A stretch of DNA of 32,618 nucleotides from Craspedostauros australis (taxonomy: Eukaryota), in NCBI GenBank assembly GCA_030167865.1, contig JALAGF010001063.1, forward strand, positions 1 to 32,618. The letters are read 5' to 3'. This document shows, one piece after another, positions 5,101-32,400 of this stretch; position 1 is the first letter of the stretch, and each line of letters begins with the position of its first letter. Below the pieces are notes generated by a model. The model was not told the DNA's origin, searched no databases, and saw nothing but the letters and a program-made list of their open reading frames with translations. The position numbers and the translations under genes were made by a program.

Positions 5101-7914
5101 ACGATATCCATGCGAGGCAACAGCGACAGCAGACAGAATATGCCGCGAAGCGAGGCACATGAGGCTTTCGAGACCCTCGGGGTGCGGCTGGCCCCAGACG
5201 GCAACGGCAGGGCGATACATGAGGCGATGGCATCAAAAGCGAGAGGGTGGGCGGAGAAGGTCCGTACCAAACGCATACGCAAACAGGATGCGACAGCGGC
5301 GATGAGCACGGTTCTGCTAAAAAAGCTGGAGTACGTTCTACCAGTAGCACAACTCTCAGAGCAGGAATGCAGAGCGGTGATGCAGCCGGTATGGAAAGTG
5401 ATGATGTCCAAAATGGGTTACAATCGTGGTTTCCCGAGGGCAATGATCAACGCTGCGGCAGGTCAGTTAGGGGCTGACATACACGAGCTCCATACAACCC
5501 AAGTAATGGAGCACATTACAATGGTGATGGAGCATGGCGAGCGCGATACCATGACAGGGCGGCTGTTAAGAGGGTCGATGGAGGCGATGAAAGTCGAGAT
5601 AGGAACGGGCAAGCCGCTCTTCGAGATGGATGTCCGAAAGTGGGGGTTCCTGGCTACAGAATGTTGGATCAAGACAGTGTGGCAGGAAGCTCAAGAATAC
5701 GGGATTAGCATCTGCGAAAAGACCGAAGGGGCAAGGAAGGTACGACGGAATGACAGGTGGCTGATGGAGGAGCTAGACAGGCTGGGGTACACCAAAGATC
5801 AGTTGAGGCGAATCAACCGGTGCAGGATATTGATGAAAGTCATGACTGTGGATGATGTTCGCGGCGGCGAGGAAGTATTGCGATGGCACACAGAACGAGG
5901 ACGGTGGAGCGGGCGGCGACACATTCGATGGCCGAGGCAAGGTGCAGTACCGGATGCCGACTGGTCTCTGTGGCGACGAGCGGTAGCAATGGCACGCGGC
6001 AGCAGCACGGATCAAGGAGATGCAGAAGCACGCAGGTGGTACGCAGTGTGGAATTCGTCGAAACAGAAAGTTTGGACGTTGGCAGCGGAACACGAGTGGG
6101 AGGAATGGGAAGCGAGCGAAGGAGACGTCGCAGGGATGCAGGGGTTCCGACGAGCTCGCGAAACGGTGTCATCAGAGGAGGTCCACGGGAGAGAGGTGAA
6201 ATTGCGAGAGGCGAACGGCAAAGTGTACGTGGTCGAAGTAGGACGAAGGGCGCATGTGCAGACGAAAGAGAGAGCAGGACGAGATCCTGGAAATGATTTA
6301 GGGGAATGGATCCATGCCGTACAGCAAGGACGGGCGGTGATAAGCACAGATGGGTCATTCAAGGATGGAAGGAGCACAGCGGCGTTCTCGCTCAATGTTA
6401 GAGGACGACGCGAAGGCTACCTTCGGATGGCAGGCGACGTGTTGGGGCGACCAGAGGTGCAGAGCGCCTATCGGGCAGAGCTAGGGGGCATTTATTACGC
6501 CCTGAAGACTGCACGGGAGGTGGTAAGCCGGCAGAAGCGAGGGTGGTCAGAGCAAGCGGCAATCGTGGTCGCATGCGACAACCGAATGGCAGGGATCCAT
6601 GCCATTGAGTACGATAGGGACGTACCAGTGAAGGCCCAGCATTTTGACCTGCTGCGGGCGATCCGCCGAGAGCAACGAATGATGCCGGTGAAGCTGGTGT
6701 ATCGACATGTGTATGGGCATCAGCTGGAGAGGGCCAGAGGAGTCAAGATTGATGAGTTCTCGTACTGGAACGATGATGTGGACAGGATGGCAGGGGAAGA
6801 GCAAGGCAGAGGGCAGCCGGCAAAGGATGCAGAGTTGCACGACAGCGAATGGTCTGTGTGGATTGGCCATGACAAGATATGTGTGAACGCCAAGGATACT
6901 GTTCGCGAGCATGTGCAACGGCAGAAGACGGAGAGGTGGCAGCAGCGCGCTGGCAAGATGGATCGGGAAGGCATGAGTGACGTCGACGGCCAGTCTATAC
7001 GGGCGGCGTTGAAAGGGCTGGGCGGCAACCGGAGACGCTGGGTGGTAAAGCATGCCGCGCACTTCGGGCCAGTTGGACGGAATATGCGGAAGTGGAAGTT
7101 CTGGGGTGATGGTTTGTGCCCAGTGTGCAAGGCGGAGGAGGAAGACACTGCTCATGTGATGAGGTGTCAGCACCCGGCTGCAGTACAGGTACGAAACACG
7201 GCCCTCGCGAAGTGGGAGGACTCTATGCGAACGCAAGGAGGGGACCCGCGCATGGTGCGAGAGATTGTCCGGCAGGTTCGTATGTGGTCGGACGGCACAG
7301 AATCGGAGCCGCAAGGGTGGTCCGACGTGCACCGGGCAGCAGTGGCACAAGGCAAGATCGGGTGGGACAAGATGGTGCTAGGTAGGTGGTCGAGGCAGTG
7401 GCGGCAGGTCCAGGCTGAAACGATGCGCAGCATGGGGGCACGAGGTACGGCCACGAACTGGATCGGGAGAGCGATCGCAGGGTTGTGGGAAGTGCGGTGG
7501 GCTGCCTGGCAAGCGCGTAATATGGCGCTGCACGACGATGAGGCCTGGAAGAAGCAAACCATGAGAGAGAGGCAAGCACAGGTCGAGGTTACTGCCACTT
7601 GGAATCAAGGCAGCGACGGCCTACAACAGAGGGACGTCGGTCTGATGAAGAACACCAGCGAGGAGCAAATCCGGAGAATGCCGGTGGATGAGCAACTAGC
7701 ATGGGTGCGGCACGTGGCGGCGGCTCGGATAGGATCGGCGGCCGCAAGAGTGCGACGGGCACAGGCAAGGGAGGAGGCGACGATCGAATGCGATGATGGT
7801 CGGCAAGGCAACGGGCGAGTGGGGGAGGATAACGGCAGAAGGAGGAGGCAGACGAGGAAGCGCGCCAGCAGTCTCCAGTTAGGGAGAGCAAGGTGTAAGC
7901 AAGCGAGGAGGTGA
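2122..7914 (+). CDS. LINE A ORF2 polyprotein: APE endonuclease, reverse transcriptase, RNase H, CCHC knuckle
   Basis: APE motifs: QNFGG, GITEVN, VVVAYRP, MDCNED, PIDGIF, ADHRCL. RT motifs: GPSG, KLRTIVL, QYGSR, DLKSCYD, QGNGAGP, FVDD (4885-4896), LGV. RNase H motifs: STDGSF (~6349), SAYRAELGGI, ACDN, HVYGHQ, NDDVDRMA. Knuckle: CPVC-x8-H-x3-C (7117-7167). The first ATG at 2122 overlaps the ORF1 stop. Confidence 0.95.
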   Translation: MVEQRGQGRPLVEAQQNDLSPNAPADAYDIPHRSGCSNEGSKEEGCEDRLGDMMMRKRQGRLRIGMQNFGGFRRVPSNVDEGLKQWMNEGEFDVFGITEVNVDWRGVQEEARLKHRIREWWPTGTTQATTANNTNDEVMRSKQWGGTAIVSRYQAAIRMAKAGWDDANLGRWVWQLYRGAKKQRLRVVVAYRPCRPRTKGVLNTYAQQRKYYNEKGKDVEPRNRMLEDLEKQVKEWSALGDHIVVMMDCNEDTRSKRIMEFLQNTDMVNAMDANENEAGATATHRLGKKPIDGIFVTRSIKVERAGLTRWDEGIQERCADHRCLWLEVSMAGVLGQEMPPLRRAVARRVKTEDPRIVEKFNDEYERHLSQHNARERAITLERRTKEGWDEQMEKEAEALDDIRVSGIWKADRRCRKLRMGGIPYSREYKQIEARIGLWNNISRKQAGRKVSTSLLQRQAKRAKEDRRIAEMVRMEAKDVRQEQTKAYDALKIFRKRATESRSEWLERIATARAKKEESAQGRPKKMKKNRGQRTASQLQQLRRKEAVRAMYRRIRQASGGDGAGGISMVIAPNAHGVWEERTEQGGIERGCMEENQRRFRQTENTPFMYGELARDFGFLGTSDAAQATLRGQYSVSKWVDVGARKLIEGLQTVATNDIPAGMTTDEFQAGWDKCKEDTSAGPSGLHFGHFKAIAKRRSNSEFEASMSSIAMKSGYSYKRWKQGVDVELMKKANSYRVDKLRTIVLFEADFNFCNKAIGRKAAVQAEKQHGFAEEQYGSRKGHKAVEHALNKQLTLDWLRQTRTPGLLCSNDLKSCYDRIVHSIASMGLQRQGVAQTEVRSMFTTLQQLEHYIRTVYGDSTAAYSGRHNRVPMQGIYQGNGAGPVIWAVISSPMLDIMRKEGHMAHFETATSNQTVGIVGYAFVDDTDLVVNARNGERIEDAVERMQNSVDEWERLVRATGGALVVEKSMWWAIDFAWQQNGEWRYATNAEVPATISMRGNSDSRQNMPRSEAHEAFETLGVRLAPDGNGRAIHEAMASKARGWAEKVRTKRIRKQDATAAMSTVLLKKLEYVLPVAQLSEQECRAVMQPVWKVMMSKMGYNRGFPRAMINAAAGQLGADIHELHTTQVMEHITMVMEHGERDTMTGRLLRGSMEAMKVEIGTGKPLFEMDVRKWGFLATECWIKTVWQEAQEYGISICEKTEGARKVRRNDRWLMEELDRLGYTKDQLRRINRCRILMKVMTVDDVRGGEEVLRWHTERGRWSGRRHIRWPRQGAVPDADWSLWRRAVAMARGSSTDQGDAEARRWYAVWNSSKQKVWTLAAEHEWEEWEASEGDVAGMQGFRRARETVSSEEVHGREVKLREANGKVYVVEVGRRAHVQTKERAGRDPGNDLGEWIHAVQQGRAVISTDGSFKDGRSTAAFSLNVRGRREGYLRMAGDVLGRPEVQSAYRAELGGIYYALKTAREVVSRQKRGWSEQAAIVVACDNRMAGIHAIEYDRDVPVKAQHFDLLRAIRREQRMMPVKLVYRHVYGHQLERARGVKIDEFSYWNDDVDRMAGEEQGRGQPAKDAELHDSEWSVWIGHDKICVNAKDTVREHVQRQKTERWQQRAGKMDREGMSDVDGQSIRAALKGLGGNRRRWVVKHAAHFGPVGRNMRKWKFWGDGLCPVCKAEEEDTAHVMRCQHPAAVQVRNTALAKWEDSMRTQGGDPRMVREIVRQVRMWSDGTESEPQGWSDVHRAAVAQGKIGWDKMVLGRWSRQWRQVQAETMRSMGARGTATNWIGRAIAGLWEVRWAAWQARNMALHDDEAWKKQTMRERQAQVEVTATWNQGSDGLQQRDVGLMKNTSEEQIRRMPVDEQLAWVRHVAAARIGSAAARVRRAQAREEATIECDDGRQGNGRVGEDNGRRRRQTRKRASSLQLGRARCKQARR

Positions 7915-8039
7915 CGCGGGAATACATGCAAGAGTGAAGTGCACGGCGGATATGATATCGGGTGCCCAGTGCGGTACGTTTTATGTGACCCACGGTGATG
8001 GCAAGCTGTGGAAGGCAAGGATGTGAGATACTTGCAGCA

Positions 8040-8144
8040 GTCGTTCTAGCACGATCGGCCGTTAGGGCTCGTCGGACGCAGGCGACTTTAAAGCCTTCGA
8101 GGCAACCTTGTGCGCAAGGGATAGTCAGTGTGTTATTATTATTA
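8040..8144 (+). other. Structured 3'-terminal RNA element and (TTA)4 tail of LINE A
   Basis: Stem GTCGTT/GGCGAC (8040-8086), hairpin GCC-TTCGA-GGC (8093-8103), hairpin CCTTG-TGCG-CAAGG (8106-8119), then TCAGTGTG(TTA)4. The order matches element B. Confidence 0.7.
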
Positions 8145-8820
8145 GAGTACACAGAATAGTCGCAGTCGATAAAGTACAAGTGCACCAATCTCTAGATGGT
8201 ATTCTACTCTCTTGCTTCGAATGCGTTCCACCGACCTTCATAAGTCACAATTTCTGTATCTTCATGATATGATACCATGTTCTAAGTACGTACGAAGCTG
8301 TGATTCGTTTGGCTTGGACAAGCACGAGCGATTACCGCGCGCTTCCTTTCTTGTTTGTTCGACGAAGTGTCCGATTTCAATGGCAACAGGACCAAGACAG
8401 AGAACAACGCGCGATTACAGGTGCAAGAACAAAGAGGAGGGTGAGACAACGATCAAACTGCGATACGCACACAAAATCCTCGCATGGTGTCACCATCCCC
8501 GTTCTGGTGTGAGGTGCTGAGGGTCACCACGGCATTTCCCTCCATCACGAGAGCAAGAAGAAAAGGGGCAACCAAGAAAAGATCTTTTGCGATCAGGGGA
8601 CTACTCGTTGAGCGCGTGGAAGCGTTCTGCTATTGCACAATACTCCCTGGAGATCGTATTCTGTTCAAATTGACGCCACGAGCACACAAAACTCAAACGC
8701 TCGCAACTGAAGGCTTCGGCACCATACCTAACTGCACTCTCCCATTCCATTCCGTCCACCATGAGCCGAAGTATCTCAAAGGCAAGTTGCAGCTCACTCT
8801 CCGGACTGTTCGGAACACGC

Positions 8821-9573
8821 ATGATGAAGAAGATCGTCCTCGCGCAGTTGGTCCTTGTATCGGGCGGCGCTGGCAGTGCCAACGGTGTCATGCGAACTGC
8901 TGCTGCGTTCGCCCCGAATCGTTCGCATGGTGCTGCCTCTCCGCATTCAAAGAGATCCACCGTTGCATCATCCACCAACCCCGGCCTTCTTTCTCGATCT
9001 ACTCGTCTCGTCGGCCAAAACTTCCACGGACTTCGTTCCCCCACCAACCCACCTTCCTGGCGACTGCAGCTGAGCCTTGATGATCCTCCGATTGTTCCTG
9101 CCATGGATCCGAAACGCCTCGATATGCTCCAGCGCGGTATCGTGGATCCCATCACGGAGGTGCAGTACCTCCTCACGGTCCGGCATCCCGGGTTCGAGGA
9201 GCTCCGCAAGAAGACCTGCGATCCCGAGACGCCTCTCAACATTGCCGAATTCATGGGGCAGCTCCTGCAGCTCTACAAGGACGAGAGCTGCCTCGCCCAG
9301 CTCCGCAAGGTCTACCCATCGATCGAGACCACCCCCATCATCGTCTACGTCATCTTCCGCACCATGCAGGTCTGCTCCGTCCTGCAGAACACCGAGTTTT
9401 GGAAGGCCGACGTCGCCGACGCCAAGCTCGACGAGATCCTCGAGGTCGCTCCGGATGATTGCAAGGACGGTTTGAAGGAGACTCGCCAGATGTTGTTGGA
9501 ACTTGCGGGCGACATGGACATGGCGGCCTTCATTGACGCCATGTACGGCATAGACCCCGCCAAGTACAAATAG
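8821..9573 (+). CDS. Hypothetical protein with probable bipartite (signal + transit) plastid-targeting presequence
   Basis: MMKKIVLAQLVLVSGG...RTAAA|FAP resembles the ASAFAP motif and is followed by an S/R/T-rich stretch lacking acidic residues. The C-terminal helical-looking domain has strongly C/G-ending codons. No family recognised. Confidence 0.65.
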   Translation: MMKKIVLAQLVLVSGGAGSANGVMRTAAAFAPNRSHGAASPHSKRSTVASSTNPGLLSRSTRLVGQNFHGLRSPTNPPSWRLQLSLDDPPIVPAMDPKRLDMLQRGIVDPITEVQYLLTVRHPGFEELRKKTCDPETPLNIAEFMGQLLQLYKDESCLAQLRKVYPSIETTPIIVYVIFRTMQVCSVLQNTEFWKADVADAKLDEILEVAPDDCKDGLKETRQMLLELAGDMDMAAFIDAMYGIDPAKYK

Positions 9574-9974
9574 GCTGGTGGGCACGGAGGGCTGGGCAGC
9601 ATACGTCACAGAACGAGGATTTTGGGAACGGCGAAACGATGCCATCGAATGAAATCAAATGGGGATCAAGGCTCCGGCTGTTGAAGAAGGGGAGGGGAAA
9701 TGGCTGCGTTGTCTGTCAGACGCTCTCGCACAGGGCGGTCGTCTGGCCAGGGACGCGCACGAGACACAGATGCTAGCCAGGGGATTCGGGGAGAGCAGTG
9801 CAGCACATGCGCATCTGCTTGACTTTGGGACGGAGTCAGGACAGCCAGCCAGGGGCTGGAAGCAGGAAAGCTGGAGACGAGTAGTCGTACCGGGCGTCAA
9901 TCACACCAGCCATTCACTACATCGCCATCACACTAATAGTACCTGCACTGATTCTCTACTTATCTGTACCTGTC

Positions 9975-11489
9975 CTACTCCGCAGCTGAGTCATGCGCAA
10001 CAAAAGCAGACATGCAACACTTCGCCATAGTCGCGCAAAGGTTGGTCTGTTTGGCATGATTTGGATGGGATCCCATCAACGCAACGTTATCAGCCTCGCT
10101 GAGTGTGCTCAAGTAGTCGACAACCTTCCGATGACCCCTCTCCACGGCAACATCCAACGCAGTGCATCCTTGATTATCGGCGATGTTCACATCCACCGTC
10201 ACATTCTCTGAGTTCACCAATAACTGCACGAGTCGCAAGCGACCTCTGCGGCACACTTCGTGCAATACTGTGCTGCCCTCGGCGTTGCGCACTCTTCCGT
10301 TAACTGTGCTCGGCGCGACCAAGTCTTCCACCCACGTTGCAGAACCACCGCGGCATGCAACGTGCATCGGGGTATCGCCACGGTTGTTCTGCGTATCGAG
10401 CATGGGCTGCGCGTAATGGATGAGTGGATGGAAATCATCGCCGATCGTGACTTCGTTGAGATTGCAACACGACACGATCTCCGTCTTGATGTGGTGATAC
10501 AATTGCATGAGATGGCCGACATCGGAGATGGCGTAATGAAAACCATGCTGGCACGCCAAATGCAGCGGCGTGTCTCCATCCTTGTTGCGAATTCTCGTAG
10601 CGACGACTTCGGGATGCCGCATCAACAGTTTCACCAACTCCTTGTGCGGCGATTGGCAGGCCAGATGGAGGCCTGTGTTTCCATCGTGATCCGCGAGGTT
10701 GCCACGTAAGGCAACGTTCTTCGATTCCAGCAAATAGCTCACGGCGGCGTCGCGTCCGTAACGACACGCTCGATGAAACGGAGTTTCGCCGCGATCGTTC
10801 TGCGCATTCACGTCAAACTTGGTGCTGTGATGATCCACCAAGTACTGCATGACGCGGCTCTTGTAGTTCTCGCAAGCGACATGGAATGGCGTGCTGCCGC
10901 TTTTGTTGCGGGCCATCAGATCGGCGTTGTGTTGGTCCGATTCCAACAGGTACTCCACCAGGTCTCTCTGTCCACGCCAACAAGCGATGTGCAACGGTGT
11001 ATTTCCCTCATCGTTTGGCTCGTGCGCATCGAAATTCACCCAGGCTGGTGATTCCTTCATCAGGTACTCCACCACGCCCCGATGGCCACCGAAACAGGCA
11101 CTGTGCAGGGCCGTGTTGCCGTCGTTGTTGCGTAAGCTCACATCGATGTTGAGACGCTCGGACTCGAGCAAGCACTCCACGATGGCTTGATATCCACGTC
11201 GGCAAGCCACGTGCAGCGCCGTATCACCGTGCCGCTCCTGCAGGTTGGGGTCGAAGGCAACGTGGTTGGAATTAATCAGGAACCCAACCACCGCCAAATG
11301 ACCACGCCGGCAAGCCAGTAGGAGCGGCGTCTCGCCGTTGTCGTTGCAGGGGTTGCTGTTGATGTTGCTAATGTTGCCGCTGTTGGTGAGCGTGGATGGA
11401 ACCAGAACTCGCACCGTGCGCAGATTGCCGTTGTGGCAGGCATCATGGAGTGGCGAGTTGCCATAAGGTGGGAGGACACTCTCTCGCAT
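9975..11489 (-). CDS. Ankyrin-repeat protein (about 11-12 repeats)
   Basis: Repeated G-x-T-(P/A)-L-H-x-A-C-x-x-G units (GNSPLHDAC, GETPLLLAC, GDTALHVAC, GNTALHSAC, GNTPLHIAC...). The first ATG is at 11489; the ORF-track start at 11495 is TTG. Confidence 0.92.
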   Translation of the reverse strand: MRESVLPPYGNSPLHDACHNGNLRTVRVLVPSTLTNSGNISNINSNPCNDNGETPLLLACRRGHLAVVGFLINSNHVAFDPNLQERHGDTALHVACRRGYQAIVECLLESERLNIDVSLRNNDGNTALHSACFGGHRGVVEYLMKESPAWVNFDAHEPNDEGNTPLHIACWRGQRDLVEYLLESDQHNADLMARNKSGSTPFHVACENYKSRVMQYLVDHHSTKFDVNAQNDRGETPFHRACRYGRDAAVSYLLESKNVALRGNLADHDGNTGLHLACQSPHKELVKLLMRHPEVVATRIRNKDGDTPLHLACQHGFHYAISDVGHLMQLYHHIKTEIVSCCNLNEVTIGDDFHPLIHYAQPMLDTQNNRGDTPMHVACRGGSATWVEDLVAPSTVNGRVRNAEGSTVLHEVCRRGRLRLVQLLVNSENVTVDVNIADNQGCTALDVAVERGHRKVVDYLSTLSEADNVALMGSHPNHAKQTNLCATMAKCCMSAFVAHDSAAE

Positions 11490-13045
11490 TGTCAATGATT
11501 GCGCTAGAAAGTGAGGAGAAAGAGAACGGAAGAGAAAGAAAGAGAAGGATTGAGTGCGGTGCCATGTGGATCAAACGACCAATTCTATTGCAATATGATC
11601 ATCCGACTATTGCCAACTCCACTCGACCCAAAGAATTGTGGGTTTCTCCATTCGTATGGCACAGCACCAGCAGAACGCTCACCATGGAACTATGCGAATG
11701 CGTCGTGAGGAGATGAGAGGGACAGAGAGTTCGAAGTGTCCTCTCCTCGTTTGTATTGAATAGCACCGCGCGAGTACCCGTCAAGGACAGCGCATGCGAG
11801 TGCGATCAGGACAGTCAACCAAACACGCAGAGCACGGCACCATACTGACACTTGGGCGTAGGCTCCCTCGACCACGCTCTCGTAGTCGCAGGCTCCAGGA
11901 TGTGCGGATTGCCACCACTTCAACCTTCCCAACAGTGGGCGGAGGACTTCTCGCTCATTGCTCGCAGGCGTGCGTCTGCGCGAGCAACAAACGAAGATTT
12001 GCCCAAACCCAGCACAGAAAACACGCCTGAAAATATCGTGGATCCAATCCACGTTTCAACAAAGGAAGTCGTCACGGAATCCCTGTCTGCGACGCGACGT
12101 GACACAACAAGAAAAGAACAGAGCAATTGATCCGTTCGACTAACTCTGCTCTTTGTGTTGTTGGACTGTTCCGCTTAGTCCATTCACGATGCACGTCTGT
12201 GTCACTCGCGGATGATGTTATTGGCGCCAAAAACGATCCAAAATGAACACACCAGACATCGAGGCGCCGCCCCACCTTTCTCTTGCCATGGCACGAGCAG
12301 TCCCGACCTTCGGGCTGTCCAGGTGGCTGCCTCCCACGTACGACTATGCAAGGTGTGACGCTTCGGCCAAAACCATGCAGTCTCCAGCCGCAGCGAGCTG
12401 CTGCAACGCATCCGCATCAGGCTCGACCAGTCTCTTAGTGTACAGCATCAATGCAAAGTCTCAACCACCGTGCACAAAGCGCGCTTCATGAAAATGAGAC
12501 AGGCACGAACCCAGACGCCAAATCCGATGACGCGGTCGGAGCGCTGGTGCGGTTCGATGCTCTCGTTGTTTCCCGTGATGAACCGGAACGACCCGATCTC
12601 CTTCAACAAGATCGATCGATTCATGGCTGTTCATTGCCTCGTCGATGCAACCATCATCATCGCGATGATCGCGGCATGCCTGTTCTTCCATCACCAGGAG
12701 ATTGCGTCAACGATGCAAACACCTGATCAGAAATTGACTTTGGCTGGCTGCCTCCGTTCATCTTGGCATGCGCGATCTCATCTTGTCCATCGAAGGTTGG
12801 ATTCACGTGAAATATCATGCACCTGGTAGCGCCGCAACAGGGCGGGATGTATCAATCGAGCTGGGCGCACAGTCTCAGGTCCAATCACGTATCTCGTCCG
12901 TCGCCCAATTCATGAAATGTCTAGTTGATAGTGAATGGATTCTAAGGCTTGTTGTTGGTGTCGTGCTCGTGAGACAGGAATGCATCAAGTGAAGGACGAC
13001 CGAGATGAGCTGCGCCGAACAGTGCGCATGAGTGCGAAGTCAGTC

Positions 13046-15248
13046 TCACAATTCCTCTTCCTCCTCATCGTCTTCGTCATCCTCGTCGTCTTCATCATCT
13101 TCCTCCTCATCGTCGTATTCGTCTTCTTCCTCCTCTCCTTCGTCACTCCACCAGTGCAGCTCGGCTCCAAAGCTTTTCAGGATCTCCACAAGCTCATGCC
13201 CCAAACCATGATGCTTCACCACCAACGAGAGGGGTGAGAGTCCTTCACCAAAGTCCGTGCGGCTGTTTACGTTCGCATTGTGCTCGAGAAGGAATTGGAC
13301 TGCGTCAGTCTCACCAGCGCGTGCGGCCTCATGGATCGGTTGCCATCCGTTGCTGTCCTTGAAATGCAGATGTGTGGAATCCTTGCGCGCAATGTCGTGG
13401 AGCTTCTCCAAGTCGCCATCACCAGCGGCGGTGTGGGCGCTCGTGCCAGCTTCGTTGTATCCCTGGTTCTGTGCGCGATAAACGGGGATTGGACGATGCA
13501 AAAGTGAACAAACCAATTGAGTGGACATCTGGCATTCGCAATCCTGCGATTGGGAGCAGAGCAGTCGATGCACAAGATCGGATCGCAGAGCAAATTCACA
13601 GTGCTCTTCTTGGCAGCCCCATTCCGGATGCTGATGATAACATCAACAACAGCACCAACACAACTAACAACGATGATAGTGACTCACATCCAGAAAGTTC
13701 TCGTGCTGATACTCTGCCAATCGCGATCCCGCTTGGACGTATGGTGGAAGGTCCGGATCCTCATCGTTGACAAATCGCCGCCCATCCATGAAGCCGTATG
13801 GCTCAAAGTGAATGAAGATATTGGCATAATATCGGCCGACCAACGGGAATGGTCTCTACGAACAACCGTGGAGACGATCGATGTTGTCACATTAGCAATT
13901 TGGCGTTGTGCGACGATGGGAACGGTTTGGAAAAAGCAGCAGTGCAGAGGTATGGTGAGCATTTAATCGAGGAGACGGCACGGCACGATATTGCGAGCAC
14001 ACACGTACGAGTATGCTTGAGTATCCCAGCATGACGACTTGAGCAATCCGCAGCATTCTCAATAGTTCGCAATGTGCAGAGTATCGTGAAACAGCCGCCA
14101 TCAACAGCCACTCGTTTCCACTCACCCCATGAATAATCGAACCGGATTCGTACAAGACCATGTCACCAGGCTCCATGGTGACGTTGACTGCCTTGCCATC
14201 ATGACCGTAGACCTCTATGGGCCAATCCTCATCCACATCTTGCGCCACATTGACGATCGCCGACGAGATGAGTGGGATGCGGTCGCAGTGCGGACTGAGC
14301 ACCGCACCCTCGTTGTACACGCGCACGCCATAGACACTGGAGGGACGTTGCTTCATGCCGGTCCATTCCTCGATGGTGGTTTTGGCGGCGTCCCAGATGG
14401 CATCGGCCAGTTCGGGCCCGGCGCCCTCCAATTCTTCGTCTTCGATACCAACAAAGTCCTAAGACGTGCACACAAGCAGAATAGGTGCAATGATTTACAT
14501 CAGTAGATTTTTGAGTTTGTGAGGCCATGCGAGAACAACAGTCGATGACGACAGGTAATCAATCAGTCAGTCAGCCGGTCATCGACAACCCCCTTCCCAT
14601 ACAGTCCAATGTCCAGCATCGTAAATGGCAAAGCATGCGCTTACCGTCGGTACCGCCCAATGGTTGGTGTAAATGTTTCCCGTGTACCACACCTCTTCTT
14701 TGCGGTTGTTTTGGTTGATCTCCCAAAAGTTCCGAATCAGTTCCACAACGTTGTCGGGTGCGCGGATCTTGACGAATCCAGTTTCGGTGAAGTTCTGCGT
14801 GCATTGGAAGCAAAACGAATGGATTGAGGGAAGAGAGAGAGAGACGGAGACAAAGAGCATTGCAGATAGTGAGTGCCTGTTCGCAAACCAAATTCATTTT
14901 CAACCGCAGGATTCACACCAACATTCACGCATGGGTGCCCGCACGTACCCTCATCGAAATCGGCTGACGGTTGTTCATGTGAAACCGTTCAGCTTCGTTG
15001 GTATCGCAGATGTCTCCAAACTTGTCGCGGCATCCCTGCATGTAGTTCTCATAGAAGCTGGCCTTGTCTCCCAGATCCTGTTTGCAGTCATCGAGGTTGT
15101 TCTTGGCAAAGATGGGGAACGAGCAATCAAAGGAGTAGCCGTTGTTGTTGGTGGGTGATTCCAGATCCGCTGCGGCCAATACGACGGCAAGCAGGAGCGT
15201 GATGGCCGCCGTGGTGAGGAAGCGAATGCAAGATGTCGGTGATCTCAT
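13046..15248 (-). CDS. Spliced gene: signal peptide, 2OG-Fe(II) dioxygenase-like domain, ankyrin repeats, acidic tail ending EEEL
   Basis: Exons 15248-14949, 14794-14645, 14458-14126, 13855-13688 and a last exon ending at 13046 (acceptor at 13630 or 13468, uncertain). They are joined by phase-0 GT-AG introns into one frame. Motifs: PHCDR (HxD), IIHG|RPFP (distal His plus Arg), GWQPIHEAARAG (ankyrin). Confidence 0.85.
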
Positions 15249-16032: not shown

Positions 16033-16134
16033 ACCACAAACGAACATCGGAATTGATGAGAAATACAATTGTTATGACTTCTTGTGGCGAAAGAGTAATT
16101 ACCCAACGACCCACTCTGTGTGATGACTTCTTAT

Positions 16135-22943: not shown

Positions 22944-23446
22944 TGTTGAGATGTACATGCGTGTATATGTCAAGATGTACGTATGTGTATGTGCATCACT
23001 CACCCACTATTCTCGTATACTCACGTACGAACGGTACAACTACATTCATGTCATAGTGAACTGTGATTTGACAAAATCACACCACAAATGGAACACACGA
23101 AAATGAGCAGGATTTCTGGAGGAAATCTGCAAACAACAATTTCTGAGAGTATCAGGAACATCGTCCGTCCATCCATCAATGGGAACGTATGGTACCAAGT
23201 GAAACTTGGTATACTTCCCAACTAAACCTCAAATGACGATATCCGCACTGAGACGTCGACATCATCGACGGCACGTGACATCTGGAGAGCAGAAGGACAA
23301 CAACTGACATTGACAGGATGTCATCATGTCACCACGTCAACATCTGTCTCCATGTCAGGAGCAGAAGGTGAAGATCAGATGACAGAAGTACATGAGGATC
23401 ACGGATACATGAAGAGGAGTTCAAGTGGCAAGTACTCATGGAGTAG
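22944..23446. mobile_element. Left part of a second LTR-like insertion, interrupted by LINE B (continues at 31972)
   Basis: Begins TGTTGAG exactly where the host frame ends. It is non-coding and hairpin-rich, and ends at the LINE B TSD. The other terminus and its TSD are not confirmed. Confidence 0.5.
23433..23446 (+). repeat. Target-site duplication of LINE B, left copy: (TA)CTCATGGAGTAG
   Basis: An identical copy lies at 31958-31971, overlapping the (TTA)4 tail by TA. Confidence 0.9.
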
Positions 23447-23553
23447 TAGAAGACAGTCACGTGACTCTTCCACTGTTGATGACGTACGTAGGACCAGTAC
23501 AAAAAACTTTACGTAGAACCTGTAGAAACCCTACCAGACCAAAATCTTTCACC

Positions 23554-25970
23554 ATGGTGCGCACCGACGCACAAAACACCGCTGGCAAAGCCAACGCAAC
23601 CCCCCGAAAGCCATCGACCATGGCACAAGGAAGGACAGGAAGAGGAGGCCGTCACGCCCGTGGCAAAGGGACGTCCGGAGGAGGTCGAGGAAGCAAGCGA
23701 CAGAACCGAGACTCGCCACCCAAAAAGACAGCAAAAAACCATCCGGTGACGAACGAGAACCGTTGGATTTGGAGCCACCAACACGAGCGCCGCTGGGGTG
23801 ACATCCTATGCGAACGCAACCTGATCACCCGAGGCTCGGACCCCTTCACTGTGCTGTCCGGGGCAGAAGGAGCACTGGATGAGACCATTGCATTCGTGAA
23901 GGAGATGAGGGACGACCTCGCCAAAGGGGCATCGCTGGAGCAGTGGAAGGATATCTTCGAAAAGGCATACGACAACAAGCTTCCAGCAGAGTCGAACCTC
24001 TCGATCGTGCAAATCATGGTGCGACTGGTGGCAACGTCCAACATCTTTAAGTCGTCCATGTGGAAACTGGGCCAAATCAAGGCAACTCATGAAACAGCAG
24101 CATGGATCGCAGCAAGAATCGTGTTCATGGAGGTCAAGGGAATCCGCTTCGACACCGACAGCGACAGCGAGGAGCCACAAGCCACATCGCCAAACCCGTC
24201 CTCCAAAAAGAAGTCACGCAAGCCAAAAAACAAGGTGGTGGCGTACCCACGGAAAGCCCCACAGGCCAGAGAACTCCTGAGTGTGAACGACGTCCTCAGT
24301 GACTATCACAAGACGTTTTTCGACGTACGACTTCCAATGTCCAGAGAAGGCAGCGAGACCCCACTGATCCAAGTTATCGCGGGGCTCAATGCACTACGGG
24401 CATTTATCTTCCGTGCTGATTCCAAAGCACAGATCCTTGCATGGCGTAAGAGCAAGGAGCTCCGCCCCTGGACAGCAGCCGACGTGGCATGGACAAATCG
24501 GGAGACCCTGAAGCAATTTGTGGAGAGCCTATACGCAAGGACGGGTTTCATGACCTACACTCGCATCTGGATCGCACACAAACAGGACCTGGAGGCATTC
24601 GAGGATGATGGCACGCTGGCGACGGCTGCTATCTCCTTCGCGAAATCGGACATCCAAGAGCACAACATCGTGGCAGCAGGATGGCTGTTCGGTAGTCACA
24701 GCTCCATGAATACCAACGACCTCGCAGAAGTCATCAATGAGAACGAGTTGGTGAAGAATCACTGTGTGGTGCAACTGAGGATCCGGGAAATCCAGCTGGT
24801 CCGGCGTCGAGGCCACAGGCCGGAGACGGACGACTTTCGGAACAGGCCAAGAGCAACCCACATCCTGTGTGGTGAATCAAAGTCGAGAGCGTGTCGCGTG
24901 GCCATGAAGGAAATGTTCAATAACAGGGCCGACACAGTTCGCCTGTTGGGCAAACAGATGAGATTCATGCCCGATGCCTTGGACCAACGATTTCACCATC
25001 CCCCATCGGAGCTCGCCAACCTGAGCTCAATGGTGTCCCACCAAGTTGCCTTCGAGAAAAAGATGATGACTCAAGGAGTGTATTCCATCACACAACTGGA
25101 TGTGGAAGTCCCAATTTGGAACCTAACGCTGCGCGAGGTGATCATGAACCTTCGCTCCTTTGAAAACCCGGATTACACACTCTTCGTGTCGGTCGACACC
25201 GACAAAGCCGACTACAATCGAACATTCTTCGTGTTCCACCCCAAACGCCAAGTGGAAGCATGAGAATTGATCTCGAAGCTACCTTTCTTCTGCAGTAAGA
25301 AACTGGACCACAAGTGTCAAGGGTGGTTTACACCGGAGGCGTGGGCCCAGAACGAATACTACGAAGTCGACTGGGAGACTGGATTGGTGAGGAGCAGGGA
25401 AGAGCTGGAGATGGGACAACTGGCACGGCCGGTGCACATTTCCTGGATCTTGACGAGGAAGAGATGGTCGGGCTAACCGCGGCCGACGTGGGGTGGGAAG
25501 GGTATGTCGACGAGAACGGCAACATGAAACCAGTGCCACTGTTGAAATTCGAGGTGGAAATGGTGTCAAACCTGAGAACCCAGAACGGAGACAACGGCAC
25601 CGTGGCCACGTTTGCCACCGCCACGGTAGCCCAACAGTCTGAACACATTGGGGCAGCCATCTCCAACACAGCAAGGAGCAAGTCTGCGAACCCTAGTCGC
25701 TTCGCGACGGACCCGTCGGCGAAGACGGACTTCGACGTGGATAACCCGGGTGCGAGCATTCCGGAAGGTGATGAGAGTGAGACCGACGACGAAGGAGTAC
25801 ACAGCGGGCCCAGGAACAAGGGTGCAAACAGTGACGAAAGCACGAGCGAGGATGACAAGAGTGGAGAGGACGGCAACAGCGCCGATAGCGCGGACGACGC
25901 AGAAATGGGAGATCCAATGGACACCGAAACAACATCGCAGACCGGCGCGGAAGCCGCAAGGCGGGAGTAA
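23554..25970 (+). pseudogene. LINE B ORF1, with a premature stop and a frameshift
   Basis: First ATG inside the element (ACCATGG, 23554). TGA at 25261-25263 falls within homology to ORF1 A (FHPKRQVEA*ELISKL vs FHPAKEMEAKMMIKGL). A frameshift at ~25425 leads into the acidic tail ending TAA at 25970. Confidence 0.85.
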
Positions 25971-26386
25971 AAAAAAAGGAGGAGCAGGAAGCAGTCAGGA
26001 AGGGGAGAGACCGAGCGAACGAACGACCAGCGAGAACGGAAAGAGGCGACACCTATGGAGTCAAAGCAAACAGGAACACAGCAAACAAACAAACGCACGG
26101 CGAACAACAAACACAAATACAGCAAACAACAAAATCAAACACAAACACACCGATAATCAAATACACAACAAACTTACAAACAACCAAGTGAACAAAGCGA
26201 AATCAATCAACACGCAAACCGAGCGACGACAGAAGACAAATCGCCGCGACATCACAACAACAACAACACGACGGACCACGTCCGGAGTAGAGGAGAGGGG
26301 GCCTGATAAATAGGCATCACAGATTAACAATCACCCACACCTCCACCTGCCACGCCGCAGCTACCACAGAGTAGCAGAAAGGCATA

Positions 26387-29300
26387 ATGGCGGACCAAAC
26401 AAACCCATCAGCAGCAAGTAGGCTAAACGATGCTTGCGGGGATACGATGAAAGACAAAACATCCGCGACGATTCGCGTTGTCTTCCAAAACGTGTCTCAA
26501 ATACCCATCCACGCATACCAACAGAAGAATGAGGAAATCTTCGAATTCGTCCGTGCCAGCAAACTCGACGTGCTCTGCCTTGCAGAGACAAACATACGAT
26601 GGGACCATGTACAACCACGGGACCAGTGGTCGGAACGCACACGACAACGACTGCCCAGGTCGAAGCATGCATTCTCCTACAACACGCACGAAGACAAGCG
26701 GGACCCCAGAATCTACGGGGGTGCCGGTGTTGTGGTGACAGAGCAACTGGCCGCCCGCACGTTTCAGAACGGAATAGACCAAAGCGGGATGGGGCGGTGG
26801 TGCTGGACACTGACAGAAGGCAAAGGAGACAAGCTTCTGAGAGTCATCTCCGCATACAGACCATGCAGATCCACGGAAGGTTCTACGACAGTGTGGTCCC
26901 AGCAGGTGAGAGCACTGGCGGCGGCAGGCCGGGAAGAAGACCCGCACGAGGCGTGGAGTAACGACTTGGCCAATGAGATCAGGAAATGGCGAACTGAGGG
27001 CAACACTCTAATACTGGGGGTCGACCTCAACGACAACGTACTGGACTGCACCACTGCTCGCCTTCTGGAGTCCACGGGGCTCAAGAATGCGGTGTGGGAC
27101 AGAACAGGAGACCAGGCGAGGCAAGCTACGCAACAAAGAAACCGGAACAACGTTCCCATTGACGCGATATTCGTGTCGGAAGGAGTGCAGCTGGAGAAGG
27201 CAGGCTACCTGGGGTTCGGCGAGGCCATACCATCCGACCACAGAGCAGTATGGGTCGACATTGGCTTCGAGCAAGTCCTAGGTGTGCCCGTAAAGCCCAT
27301 CCGGACCTCTCAGCCCAGACGACTGGTCCTCAGTGACCCGCGTGTCACCCAGAAGTACAAGATGCACTACTGGAAGAGTACGGAAAACACAACATCAGCG
27401 AACGGGTGCAAGAGTTATGGTGCCTTGCGAAATCACAAGGATGGCGACTTACCCCTGGCCAGCGACTCCAGTACGACAAACTCTTGGCGCAGACCTATGA
27501 GATTAGGCGATACGCGGAGAAGAAGTGCCGCAAGCTGAGAATGGGGGCAGTGGCTTGGTCTCCCGACCTGCAACACGCGAGGAACGTGATCAAGTTCTGG
27601 TCCTTGGAAGTGAAGCACATATCCAGAGTCAAAGTGAGTTCATCCCTTCGGCAACGCACCAAGAAGTCCGTAGGGCTGGACACGGCGGCGACGCTGGAGC
27701 AGGCGAAACAGAAATTGTCTGAAGCATACGCGTCCTACTACGAGCAGAAAAAGCAGCACAAACAAGCACGACAAGACTACCTGGTGGAGATTGCGAGGCA
27801 ACGCCACGACGCCCATGATCAAGAATACGAGGCAGCACTACATCTTTTGCAGAACCGTGAGAGACAAAGAGAGCAAGCAGGCCGCCTTCGGACGATTTTC
27901 GGACAGGACAAGTCGATGACTACCAAAGTCCTGTTCACCGACGAAGATGGTAGGCTCCACGAATGCACTGAGCAACATGAGATTGTCACCACGTGTATCC
28001 GGGAGAACAAGCGAAGGTTCTCACAAGCAAACGGTACTCCCTGTATGACAGGTCGAGACAAGCGCATCATGGACCGTATCTGGCAACCGGAACTCGCAGC
28101 CCATCTAGTGAACCGGGAGGGCACGTCCCCGACCGAACTGGATCCCATGATCCGGACTCTGCTTGCATCACTGGAGCCCATCGCTCAAGACAAGACTGAA
28201 CTCACGGTCGAGGATCACCGGAAAGCGTGGAAGCGACAAACAGAGCTCACCAACTCGGAACCCAGCAGTCCGCATTTCGGCCACTACAAGGCAGCAATGA
28301 TGGTGGATAGCTTGGCTAGAACGGATGCGCAGTTGCGCGACGTCCCATACCAAACAGGGCATTCGCCCCGACCATGGCAACGGATCACAGATGTCGAGAT
28401 CCTGAAGAAGGCCCAGGTGTTCAATATTGAAAAAATGAGGACTATCCAGCTCATGGACGCTCAGTTCAATCTCAACAACAAGAGATTGGGCAGGCAAATG
28501 ATGAAGACGGCGGAGGAAGCGGGCTGGCTGTCCGGGTACCAATTTGGCAGCAGGAAATGCAAATCCGCCATGAGTGCCGCCCTGAACAAGAGGTTGAGCA
28601 TCGACCTGGGCTTCCAACAGAAGGTGGCGATTGGGTTCTGCTCGAACGACGCCAAGTCGTGCTACGACAGGATTGTTCCAAATTTTGCGGCAGCTGCGAT
28701 GATAGCGGCGGGCGCAAATGGGGCAGCCACACGAAGCATGTTCAAGACCCTTCGCGATGCCGACCATCGCATAAGCACAGCGTACGGGGTGTCGGATAGG
28801 TCATACGGTCGAGGTCCCGACTGCGAAATGCATGGCATAGGACAAGGCAACGGAGCGGGCCCCGCGATATGGGCCGTCATCAGCTCCGTGATGTTCAATG
28901 CTATGCTCAAGTTGGGCCACGCATCCCAGCTCACGACACCTGACGGAGGGGTCATTGAGATCCTTGGCTCGGCGTTTGTCGACGATACGGACTTGGTCCG
29001 ACTGGAGTCCACAGGCGGCGAAGGAGCCGACACGGAGGCATTCAAGAACATGGTGCACGACTGGAGCCGGTTGCTTCGCGTGACAGGCGGGGCGTTGGTT
29101 CCTGCTAAGTCAGCTTGGTGGGCCATTCAGCCGGAGTTCGTCAAAGGCGAGTGGGACTGGACGGACGTCGACACCCACACTACAATCCGCATTGAGGATG
29201 GGAACGGCGTCAGGTCTGAGATACCCTACAAGACGATGGACCAGCCCTTGTTCACGCTGGGGGTGTTCATCGACTTTGACGGCGACCAGACCGAGCAGAT

Positions 29301-31851
29301 GCGGAGAATGCGAGCGAAGGCCAAGGATTTCGGCGGCAGGATGCGGTCCGCGCAGATATCACCGGAGGACGCTAAGTCGGCCCTATCATTGCGGTTCATG
29401 AAGACGATCGAGTATGCACTGCCAATGACGCAACTCTCCAGGCAGCAGTGGCGACGAGCCATGGCGCCGGCACTGCTGGCGTCTCTGCCAAAAATGGGAG
29501 TGTCCAGGAATTTTCCGCGGGCCCTTGTGTACGGCACAACCTCGCTGGGCGGGCTGGGAATCACAAACCCCGCCAATGCCCAGCTGATTTCACAAATACA
29601 GCTTGCGTTTGACGAGGTGCATCGTGGAACCCAGACGGGGAAGATGATCGAATGCTCTATTCTGGCACTCAAGGAAGAGTTAGGAACGGGCAGATCTATT
29701 TTTCGGTACCCCTTCGACAGTGTGGGCCATTGTGCCACGCAATGTTGGGTGACGGGGCTATGGCAACAACTCCAAGACACCAGCATCCGGATTGACGAGA
29801 CGACGACGACAGCGAAGATCCAACGGGACGGCGATGGCTTTCTCATGGACATCTGGCTGGAACAAGGCATCAAAGGAGCACAGCTCCGGCACCTGAACAT
29901 GGTGCGCCAGAAGTTGGGAGTGTTACGCCTATCCGATATAGTGTCGGCCAACGGCACAAGGATACTCGGCGAGGCCCATGACGGCACCATAGCCTCATGC
30001 ATACCCAAGCGCTGGGCCAACCAGCCGGAACGGCTACCAAGCGGGTGGTGGCGAGAATGGCAACGCTGGTGCAAGTCCATGTGCTTTCGGGGCCTTCTCC
30101 TGCATGAGCCGCTCGGTAGGTGGCGCCGCGACGATGGGTCTTGGCGGTGGTGGAAGTTACCCTACGGCCACGATATATTCGATGCGGGGACACAACCCCT
30201 ACAACGATACGTGCTCCGCCAGAACAGCAGAACCCGCAGGCAACTCTATGCTCGGCGAGGGACAGTCAACAATCTCCCAGCCGGCGCCAAGCGTGTCTCG
30301 GTGTCTTTCACGGATGCGGGCATGGCGTGGGACAGCTTTGTCGGACTGGCACAGCCGGTCGACGAGCTCGACGCACCCTACGACCCAGTGGAGAATCTGC
30401 AAGGCGACCTCAGCCTCGAGGAGGCCGCGGGCGCCGCGAGAAGATCCCAGCTGCTAGTAGTGAGTGACGGATCATTCAAGGGTTCCAGAGGGACTTCAGC
30501 TTCTATTCTGTACGACAAGGCGACGACGGCAAGCATGATGTGTCAGACGTTTGTCCCAGGTCTGTCCGAGGTGCACAGCGCCTACAGAAGCGAGCTCGCG
30601 GGAATCTGGGCGTCACTGGCCGTGATAGACAGAATGCGCGATCTGGACGCCTCGTGTGTGATTACCATTGCACTTGACGGCAAGCAGGCGATGCTACAGG
30701 CCCAAGAGGACGGACTACGCCCGGGTCAACGGGACTGGGATGTCCTGACGGAGATTCGCGAGCTGCAGCACAGGATTCCGGCGACCCTACAATGGGAGTG
30801 GGTGAAAGGCCACCAGGACGACACCGGCAAGCAGCTGACTGTGTTGGAAAAACTCAACGTTAAGGTTGACGACCACGCCAAGCAGTTCTGGACCCTTACA
30901 GAGAGCCGACGCCGGGTGCGAAGGTGGCATACGTCCACGAACCGATGGAGGCTACGCCTCCGTAACGCCGATTACTCGCATGTGGACGCGAAGGAGCTCC
31001 ACGAGCTTCTGCAGTCTGCCGACGCAGCTACCTATTGGTCATCAAAGTTCCAGTGGGATGAAGATCAGCTGACAAAGGTGGACTGGCACACGTACAAGAA
31101 GACGCGTGTTGCCAAGAAGAACAAAGAGGTGGCTAAGTTCATCTCGAAGTGGTCATCGGGTTTTGTCGGAGTCAACAAGAAGCTTCATCAGGTGGGTCAA
31201 CGTGAGACACCAAAGTGCCAGTTCTGCCAGCAAGACGAAACGACGACGCACGTGCTCCGATGCAGCGAACATCAGGAAGCCTGGCAGACCGCTACGTCAG
31301 AACTACTTGACCGTATGGTGCGGATCGGCACATGTCCCCGACTGGTACGAGATATGAGAGTGGGGCTTGTGAGATGGAGGAGAAAGCTCCGCCTGGACGG
31401 GCCGCAAAGCTACATCGGTTGGTACCCCCTCCTGCTTGGTTTTATCCATAGGGATTGGGTCCGCCAGCAGACACAGTGGATGACGACGAATGAGTGCATG
31501 TACCCCGATGCAGGAGCTTGGGCGCGAGAGATGGTGCGGTGGATCTGGAAAGTACCGTGGGCGGTCTGGATTGCCAGGAATGCAAAAGTGCATGGCGCGG
31601 AACAGCATCCAACGATCAAAGACCTGCGCCGACAGGTTCAGCGGATGCAACAGAGTGCGAGCAGCGATATGACGGCATCGGAGCTTCATTTGCTCAGAGA
31701 CGGTTGGAATATTGAGTATGGCACCAAGCTACAAATGCAGCAGTGGGTGCACTCTATGACGGCGGTTCAGGCGGCAGTGAAGGCCAGACGCAGGTCCCGA
31801 TCTATGCAGGCAGAACGACAAGCCATGGCAACATGGCTAGGAATAGGATGA
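26387..31851 (+). pseudogene. LINE B ORF2 (APE-RT-RNase H-CCHC) with a single frameshift at ~27360
   Basis: APE: FQNV, LAETN, ISAYRP, VDLND, PIDAIF, SDHRAV. Frameshift DPRVTQKYK/DALLEEYGKHN, compared with DPRIVEKFNDEYERHLSQHN in A. RT: DAKSCYD, QGNGAGP, FVDD (28975-28986). RNase H: SDGSF (~30466), SAYRSELAGI, WVKGHQD. Knuckle: CQFC-x7-H-x3-C (31216-31263). Confidence 0.93.
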
Positions 31852-31868
31852 GTGGCAACACTTGACGG

Positions 31869-31959
31869 CTCGCTCAAAGCCTGGTCCTACGGGGCCGGCG
31901 GCGGCGAGGGAAAAGCCTTGAGGCACATCTATGATGTAATCACTGAGTTATTATTATTA
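31869..31959 (+). other. Structured 3'-terminal RNA element and (TTA)4 tail of LINE B
   Basis: Stem CTCGC/GCGAG (31869-31908), hairpin GCC-TTGA-GGC (31915-31924), hairpin ACATC-TAT-GATGT (31925-31937), then TCACTGAG(TTA)4. Confidence 0.7.
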
Positions 31960-31971
31960 CTCATGGAGTAG

Positions 31972-32400
31972 AAGCCAGTAGTGAATGAATGGAGTGTCAA
32001 ATGCGGAGTACGCATCGAGCACAGAGTGTTGCGTAGCACAAGCATGCAACATTGAGAGAGAGAGAGAATACAGAGAGGAGCGAGAGAGCATCTTGCGTAC
32101 CGACTCATAGTCGGATCGAAACGAACTGAACCAACCAATCTGTAAAGAGACAGACGCACCGAGAGCATCGGGCAAGACTATGGAGACATCGAGAGGATTG
32201 GAGTGCTTCAACTAATGAAATAGCAAACAGAAACAGTAACAACCATCACCGTCTTCCATGATTGTAGGCTCCCAATATCGGGACTTTGCCCTAGACGGCA
32301 GGCTAGATAGACTATTGGTGACACAAGACCTAGACTTGTGCACAATAGATACTAGTCATCAATAAGTCACCCAAGCAATCACATTGCCAGTCACACCTAC
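31972..32400. mobile_element. Right part of the LTR-like sequence interrupted by LINE B
   Basis: Contiguous with 22944-23446 through the TSD. It is non-coding with short hairpins and a (GA)n tract, and runs into an N at 32401. Confidence 0.4.

Follow-up and report, generated by a model that had tools for sequence, protein, structure and literature searches.

Most LINEs choose their own RNA for copying by means of folded 3′ tails, and, to our knowledge, few such tails have been defined so far, almost all of them from animals. The 3′ hairpin and octamer microsatellite of amniote CR1 and the structured 3′ UTR of R2 elements are examples of folded RNA acting as a recognition signal for the reverse transcriptase (RT). 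In the stringent-type L2 elements of zebrafish (ZfL2-1 and ZfL2-2), PMC4176376 describes the binding of the ORF2 protein to the cognate 3′ stem-loop. Passages of PMC3747384 link the TGTAA repeats of eel UnaL2 to template slippage and report TAA repeats at the end of the I element, and the title of a study cited there describes the I-type repeats as indispensable for reverse transcription to start precisely. The same source, in its section 4.3, describes for the plant L1-clade LINEs a stem of variable sequence next to a conserved 3′-flanking tetranucleotide.

Here, we consider a stretch of 32,618 nucleotides from Craspedostauros australis (contig JALAGF010001063.1 of assembly GCA_030167865.1), referred to below as the window, whose + strand carries two non-LTR retrotransposons, A (3′ end at 8144) and B (3′ end at 31959). 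Their parts and the other features of the window are listed in Table 1. The ORF2 of element A matches Pfam RVT_1 with an E value of 7.5e-08, above the curated cut-off; its match to Exo_endo_phos (E 4.4e-04) falls under the Pfam curated cut-off, which the endonuclease ORF of element B passes. The ORF2 proteins of A and B are identical at 429 of 1452 positions (30%) over about 1450 aligned residues, and their alignment contains the D, E, D and H columns (DGS..E..D..H) typical of RNase H as well as a C-terminal Cys/His motif. Pfam reported no RNase H in A or B. PF00075 is present in 71-98% of the members of the Atlas neighbour clusters, and one relative has been named "ribonuclease HI" by JGI; it is from these clusters, this name and the motif columns that we assign a putative RNase H-like region to ORF2. 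The 3′ UTR is 230 nt long in A and 108 nt long in B. Unlike A, with its single 1942-aa ORF, element B has its endonuclease and RT parts in different frames, in ORFs that overlap by 133 nt, and for this reason, although its target-site duplication (TSD) is intact, it is probably dead through a frameshift, an assembly error or a programmed shift being the alternatives.

Table 1. Positions of the elements, their 3′-terminal parts and other features in the window
Feature	Positions	Strand	Basis or remark
Element A, ORF1	3-2129	+	runs past the 5′ edge of the window and is open there
Element A, ORF2, 1942 aa	2086..7914	+	APE-type endonuclease, RT, putative RNase H-like region, C-terminal Cys/His motif
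Element A, SL1, 49 nt	8039..8087	+	MFE folds and pair counts on a structure-blind alignment
Element A, single-stranded linker TTAAA	8088..8092	+	AAA ahead of H2 invariant in two alignments
Element A, H2, GCCT-TCG-AGGC	8093..8103	+	fold; all 3 modelled pairs covary across relatives
Element A, H3, core CCTTG-TGCG-CAAGG	8104..8122	+	fold and covariation
Element A, single-stranded box AGTCAGTGTG	8123..8132	+	variant of the lineage consensus AATCAATGAG
Element A, terminal microsatellite (TTA)4	8133..8144	+	3′ end of the element
506-aa ankyrin-repeat protein	9975-11495	-	largely within the run coverage at 9068-11450
Second ankyrin ORF	13046-13573		
552-aa ORF	16135-17793	-	five stretches match Pfam DUF7640
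Element B, 5′ TSD copy CTCATGGAGTAG	23435..23446	+	exact 12-mer, elsewhere in the window only at 31960-31971
Element B, full length, 8513 bp	23447..31959	+	delimited by the target-site duplication
Element B, endonuclease ORF	26387-27538	+	Exo_endo_phos (Pfam)
Element B, RT ORF	27406-31851	+	other frame than the endonuclease ORF
Element B, SL1, 40 nt	31869..31908	+	MFE folds
Element B, linker GGAAAA	31909..31914	+	
Element B, H2, GCC-TTGA-GGC	31915..31924	+	fold, covariation
Element B, H3, ACATC-TAT-GATGT	31925..31937	+	adjoins H2 and the box without a spacer
Element B, box AATCACTGAG	31938..31947	+	
Element B, terminal microsatellite (TTA)4	31948..31959	+	
Element B, 3′ TSD copy CTCATGGAGTAG	31960..31971	+	begins directly after (TTA)4

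Elsewhere in the window, eight tandem copies of a 108-nt unit, with 60-96% identity, lie at 16090-17145 within the 552-aa ORF. The stretch at 18887-20347 contains dense long inverted repeats, with arms of 44-175 nt that are 73-90% complementary, in addition to direct repeats at a spacing of about 181-196 nt, and to judge by this arrangement the stretch may represent a repeat array of foldback or palindromic type. No RNA run is listed for this locus; the one public run that is listed (Logan contigs, the kind of run being a guess) has contigs confined to 9068-11450, with neither element included.

The two elements end in parts that follow the same order, namely, a large stem-loop (SL1), an A-rich linker, two hairpins (H2 and H3), a 10-nt box and (TTA)4. 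The initial annotation had proposed such a common ordered module at the ends of two elements with otherwise dissimilar UTRs, and this description holds: all of its parts are present, ViennaRNA folds both 3′ ends into three hairpins, and a MAFFT alignment of the two 3′ UTRs is convincing over the last 70 or so bases only. The basal helix of SL1 in A pairs AGTCGTT (8039-8045) with GGCGACT (8081-8087), including two U·G pairs, and that in B pairs CTCGCT (31869-31874) with GGCGAG (31903-31908), while H3 of A is closed by A8104 and T8122 across a small internal loop. The 12-mer TTATTATTATTA (with up to one mismatch) and the H2 motif AAAGCCTT(N)GAGGC each have two matches in the 32.6-kb window, at the ends of A and B only, against 0 expected, and none of 100 shuffles gave two. 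The folding energies of these ends are unremarkable, with z = -0.78 for A, matched by 47 of 200 shuffles, and z = -1.47 for B (17 of 200). Since the folds of A and B on their own are no more stable than those of shuffled sequences, two copies cannot decide whether the hairpins matter, and the case for something beyond chance rests on the comparison of relatives and not on thermodynamics.

When the RT region of element A was used as a query, 814 relative proteins were found at E ≤ 0.001 in ENA, JGI, Logan and NCBI. A profile of 14 ORF2 sequences matched 597 stretches in JGI metagenome contigs, 438 of which were confirmed as relatives, and the best 80 of these 438 were taken as loci L001-L080. 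The ORF2 match reaches residue 1800 or beyond (of the 1942 of A) in 45 of the 80 loci, and 39 of these 45 have 150 nt or more after an in-frame stop, which gives a readable 3′ end. Among these 39 readable relatives from the best 80 of 438 loci, 32 carry the complete module and four a variant, partial or cut-off one (L024, L032, L060 and L078). In the other three (L012, L016 and L042), no module was seen in the readable sequence. Given these three relatives and the four variants, the module is not universal in the lineage; the stop in L042 is premature, so that the sequence read downstream of it is still coding-like. The module is also found in L022, a frameshifted copy outside the 39, and that of L051, 2.7 kb past the stop, may be part of a different copy. 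The 32 complete modules, L022, A and B make up the 35 instances considered below.

The RT regions of the relatives are 36-43% identical to that of A. In an RT tree of 41 sequences with a midpoint root, the module occurs on both sides, A falling in a clade of 26 rows and B in a clade of 15. As a separate observation, SL1, the linker and H2 are retained in L024, a T/G-rich stretch takes the place of a clear H3, and of the box nothing but TGAG is left ahead of (TTTA)n; its sister row in this tree, L012, has no module within 607 nt after the stop, and the sublineage formed by these two may be losing or replacing the signal.

Across the lineage, the consensus on the 3′ strand of SL1 is GGCGAC, and the linker measures 5-8 nt and ends in AAA, or in AA in a few families (for example, L049, L050, L056 and L076). 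H2 consists of 3-5 bp, and its arms form the pairs GCC/GGC, CCC/GGG, GCGC/GCGC, GTGC/GCAC, GCCT/AGGC, GTCT/AGAC and GTCT/AGGC. These H2 types track the RT clades, with CCC/GGG in nine rows (support 100), GTCT/AGAC in six rows (support 99) and GCCT in three rows (support 99). H3 begins on the base right after H2, ends on the base before the box and nearly always opens with an A-T pair; its smallest form has 5 bp closing a 3-nt loop and its largest spans about 40 nt, interrupted by internal loops, and its arms are entirely different in sequence between families. The single-stranded box of 10 nt has the lineage consensus AAUCAAUGAG and reads AATC-NN-TG-W-G in most instances, with one additional T in one subclade and AGTC in A. 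The tail is made of (TTA)n, (TTAT)n or (TTAA)n units, of (TA)n in L005, (TAAA)n in L051 and (TTTG)n in L022, and of AA-prefixed TTA repeats in L029, L035 and L036. Its unit varies inside RT clades; the CCC clade, for instance, has TTA, TTAA twice and TTAT once.

For the hairpins next to the box, a covariance model (model R2) of ten non-CCC sequences was used, with three pairs in H2 and five in H3. Run over the window and the 80 loci (549,853 bases, both strands), it gave 34 matches at E ≤ 1, all of them on the ORF2 sense strand. Each match in a locus lies downstream of the end of the ORF2 match, and among the matches of the model in these roughly 550 kb of window and loci there was no module away from an ORF2 3′ end. 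The complete instances in L029, L051 and L074 were missed by model R2 and found by a motif search.

Covariation across further families is what the initial annotation had set beforehand as the test of its proposal, and it is indeed observed: in addition to the presence of the module in 32 of the 39 readable relatives, H2 and H3 undergo compensatory change. In an alignment of 34 instances fitted to the structure of model R2, which leans towards pairing, 97.7% of the 222 lettered cells of H2 and H3 hold standard pairs, as opposed to 65.7 ± 2.2% in shuffles, none of 500 being as high. By the same counts, two-sided changes are found in 69 cells against 19.0 in shuffles (0/500), and the covariation score is 0.599 against 0.156. 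Seven of the eight pairs vary on both sides, and the remaining one, an A-U pair closing H3, is invariant. As this alignment is fitted to a structure, an alignment-free parse and a count of events on the tree were added. The strict parse calls for AA, an H2 of at least 3 bp and an adjoining H3 with at least four consecutive pairs ending at the box, with at least eight pairs in total. It was passed by 23 of the 35 instances and by 83 of 7000 shuffled upstream sequences; 11 of the 35, A included, fail it because H3 is interrupted by internal loops or H2 contains a mismatch. On the RT tree, there are at least 28 changes among standard pair states, distributed over the eight pairs as 1, 4, 2, 0, 7, 5, 4 and 5.

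These results bear on one alternative, namely, that the shared 3′ end was inherited from a common ancestor, with incidental hairpins and no functional structure. Such inheritance would suit the unremarkable folding of single sequences and the conservation of SL1, the linker and the box largely as sequence, and related sequences can exceed column shuffles without any structure. It accounts poorly, however, for the arms of H3, which have no common sequence between families and still pair in 97.1% of cells, or for the controls in which the 3′ partners were slid by one to three columns, as these keep the relatedness of the sequences and pairing in H2 and H3 nonetheless falls to 26-52%. Both the changes on the tree, which keep standard pairs, and the outcome of the alignment-free parse point the same way, so that this explanation, already disfavoured, now seems very improbable to us.

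The large stem-loop is a different matter. When the 100 nt ahead of H2 are folded, the MFE structure contains a hairpin of 40-51 nt that ends 5-8 nt before H2 in 23 of the 35 instances, and two of the 12 failures stem from a wrongly picked start of H2. In a structure-blind MAFFT alignment, 77.6% of the cells of the 7-bp basal helix of SL1 pair, against 72.6 ± 1.9% in shuffles, two of 500 reaching the observed level, and 27-67% in slid controls, and double changes are found in 15 cells against 8.6 in shuffles (0/500). The basal helix is mostly conserved as sequence, and the support for it is therefore modest. Thus, of the RNA that the initial annotation had described as structurally conserved, H2 and H3 are upheld by strong covariation, with pairing kept by compensatory substitutions, while SL1 is upheld much more weakly.

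The basal helix of SL1 is informative in another respect, as two of its positions are U·G pairs, with UG in 23 and 9 of the 28 lettered cells, respectively, and U·G-type pairs are also found in H2 and H3 (UG 3; GU 1 and UG 1). On the complementary strand, the U·G pairs of SL1 would be A·C mismatches, and they indicate, as far as base pairing can, that the module acts as RNA of the sense strand. One could propose instead that the structure works at the DNA level, in the cDNA or the integrated copy, for example, in second-strand priming or as a transcription terminator. Our evidence consists of DNA sequence, Watson-Crick hairpins form equally on either strand, and G·T pairs would still be available to the sense strand of the DNA; nevertheless, with A·C mismatches expected on the other strand at the U·G positions of SL1 and also of H2 and H3, we consider a function in DNA very unlikely.

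The position of the module at the terminus is best seen in element B. An exact TSD of 12 bp, or of 14 bases if the preceding TA is included, flanks this element, and B is on that account a full-length insertion with its true terminus at the tail. The two-base overlap between TSD and tail would fit priming by microhomology in this single case. The 5′ end of A lies beyond the window, which leaves A without a TSD check of its own; its terminus is placed at (TTA)4 by analogy with B and with pairs of copies from the same family. Two such pairs, L035/L036 and L071/L074, are each identical at 210 of 210 positions up to the box and then differ in repeat number and continue into unrelated flanks. As in stringent-type LINEs, the end is formed by a short tandem repeat instead of poly(A), and the number of repeats varies between copies; the module itself follows the ORF2 stop on the sense strand and lies at the very 3′ end of an autonomous LINE.

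In the metagenome loci, of which most contigs miss one or both flanks, the only possible TSD is an unconvincing one of 9 bp in L005. There, the 9-base sequence CCCCTTGTA is found at 682-690, about 2 kb upstream of ORF2, and at 8689-8697, directly after the (TA)n tail; it may be a TSD, and a chance match is also possible. As a further observation on tails, the end of L071 (9068-9095) reads GAGTTA followed by seven A and then by unrelated DNA, and that of L074 (8591-8615), from the same family, ends GAGTTATTAT. The comparison of these two copies hints that the tail is occasionally replaced or extended by a run of A.

A conserved RNA fold in this position might also serve the formation of the transcript's 3′ end, or the stability, export or translation of this transcript, and not recognition by the RT. 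The structure and its specificity for the sense strand suit any such role, the module sits where a 3′-end processing or stabilising element would be expected, and elements that lack a poly(A) tail need some means to define or protect their 3′ ends. A role of this kind alone does not explain why an invariant box adjoins a repeat that is present in different numbers in copies of the same family, nor why the sequence of the element ends with this repeat, right at the TSD, as would be expected for the initiation of reverse transcription; in addition, no ribozyme or processing-signal family of Rfam was matched, even at E ≤ 10. We therefore regard a function of this kind in place of RT recognition as unlikely, bearing in mind that RNA processing or stability and RT recognition are not mutually exclusive and may coexist in the same structure.

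To gauge specificity, a 15-base box pattern was run over viral and prokaryote collections, where it has many chance matches, and these were used as a negative control. On the control loci, the highest score of model R2 was 29.1 bits among 98 viral loci and 22.1 bits among the 100 prokaryote loci searched out of 120, and the four viral matches displayed have broken pairs, up to four of the eight in the best one. By comparison, the scores of the first 19 of the 34 instances lie at 37.1-76 bits. Instances with a long H3 score 17.7-37 bits, which overlaps the range of the chance controls, and they were accepted because of their context (downstream of ORF2, on the sense strand) and their folds and not because of their score.

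With regard to novelty, Rfam 15 gave no match at the gathering score over the whole window and none at E ≤ 10 over 7900-8200 and 31800-32050, LINE 3′ elements and self-cleaving ribozymes included. A ribozyme or tRNA-like identity was also considered and rejected, as the hairpins stand in series and not around a junction and have no Rfam match. A search of the full-text literature, a body that excludes subscription journals, Repbase reports and supplements, returned no published description of the module or of the box, in agreement with the earlier statement that no description was known. For example, in passages of Maumus 2009 (PMC2806351) the mention is confined to one RTE-like non-LTR family, that of Thalassiosira pseudonana, and those of Lescot 2016 (PMC5029228) report environmental LINE clades and no 3′ structures. 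An earlier description may exist, and this kind of signal is itself well known.

Several of the systems introduced above resemble the module in part. The I factor is an APE-type LINE in which RT is followed by RNase H, an order that the elements described here may share through their putative RNase H-like region, and like them it has a trinucleotide A/U repeat at its end. We know of no upstream three-hairpin module in the I factor, and its repeat is (TAA)n, whereas that of the present elements is (TTA)n on the sense strand. CR1 and R2 elements belong to other clades, with other folds and other repeats, and no Rfam family was matched here. The L2-clade elements UnaL2, ZfL2-1 and ZfL2-2, as far as they are described in the passages cited above, share with the present lineage a stem-loop of the 3′ UTR near the terminus that is followed by short repeats and no poly(A). 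However, that clade has one hairpin where there are three in series here, and the strongest sequence conservation here lies in a single-stranded box of 10 nt, placed between the last hairpin and the repeat, and not in a hairpin loop; moreover, the repeat unit here has 2-4 nt and changes between sublineages, and the protein has a putative RNase H-like region. In the 3′ ends of plant L1-clade LINEs and SINEs, according to the relevant part of PMC3747384, the stem varies with compensatory changes and the 3′ flank is conserved, a logic that matches the variable H3 and the invariant box. Those elements differ in having poly(A), a single stem-loop and a tetranucleotide flank in place of the 10-nt box. 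The module is thus a well-supported addition to a known kind of signal, and its layout of three hairpins and a box is distinct.

Our preferred reading, to which we assign a probability of roughly 0.68, is that the module is the cis-acting 3′-terminal signal for template recognition and initiation in a large lineage of APE-type, stringent LINEs that code for an endonuclease, an RT and a putative RNase H-like region. We favour it because the position, the strand, the fold, the invariant box beside a variable repeat and the TSD fit such a signal when taken together. The initial annotation had already proposed a signal for RT recognition; the exact terminal position and the covariation support this in part, and binding by the RT is suggested by analogy with LINEs of the stringent type. 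According to this model, the sense transcript would end in SL1 (about 40-50 nt), the A-rich linker, H2 stacked directly on H3, the box and the A/U-rich repeat. The ORF2 protein of the element would recognise the folded part and the box and would thereby copy its own RNA over others, which is the "stringent" choice. The box would position the repeat in the active site of the RT, and the nicked target DNA would prime on the repeat through a microhomology of a few bases. Slippage on the repeat would then give each new copy its own repeat number. By the same analogy, protein binding, initiation at the repeat and slippage are all predicted features of this lineage.

A more far-reaching proposal, which we put forward tentatively and consider somewhat less than an even bet, is that the module represents an RNA family not described before and characteristic of an entire LINE lineage, most of it environmental, in which the box and not a hairpin loop is the sequence-specific determinant. 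If this were true, an invariant box would be held beside the repeat by a platform of stacked H2 and H3, a logic that differs from the UnaL2 paradigm, and the lineage would span hundreds of protein clusters in aquatic metagenomes. With the box fixing the initiation point, the tail unit would be free to change among TTA, TTAT, TTAA, TA, TAAA and TTTG with recognition left intact. The lineage would then offer a natural series for dissecting the choice of the start site by the RT of a LINE and a compact, portable 3′ tag with which this RT could be steered to heterologous RNAs.

From a practical point of view, the module of about 105 nt, which belongs to a large LINE lineage of protist or environmental origin, can, with its covariation, conserved box and repeat variation, seed an Rfam family. 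It also enables the annotation of 3′ ends, of 5′-truncated copies and of possible SINE partners in algal and protist genomes and in metagenomes, and it offers concrete mutants for binding and target-primed reverse transcription (TPRT) assays, namely, the disruption and restoration of stems, changes in the box and swaps of the tail unit. For the biology of these elements, the finding leaves existing concepts in place and carries a known mechanism over to a new lineage, one whose architecture differs.
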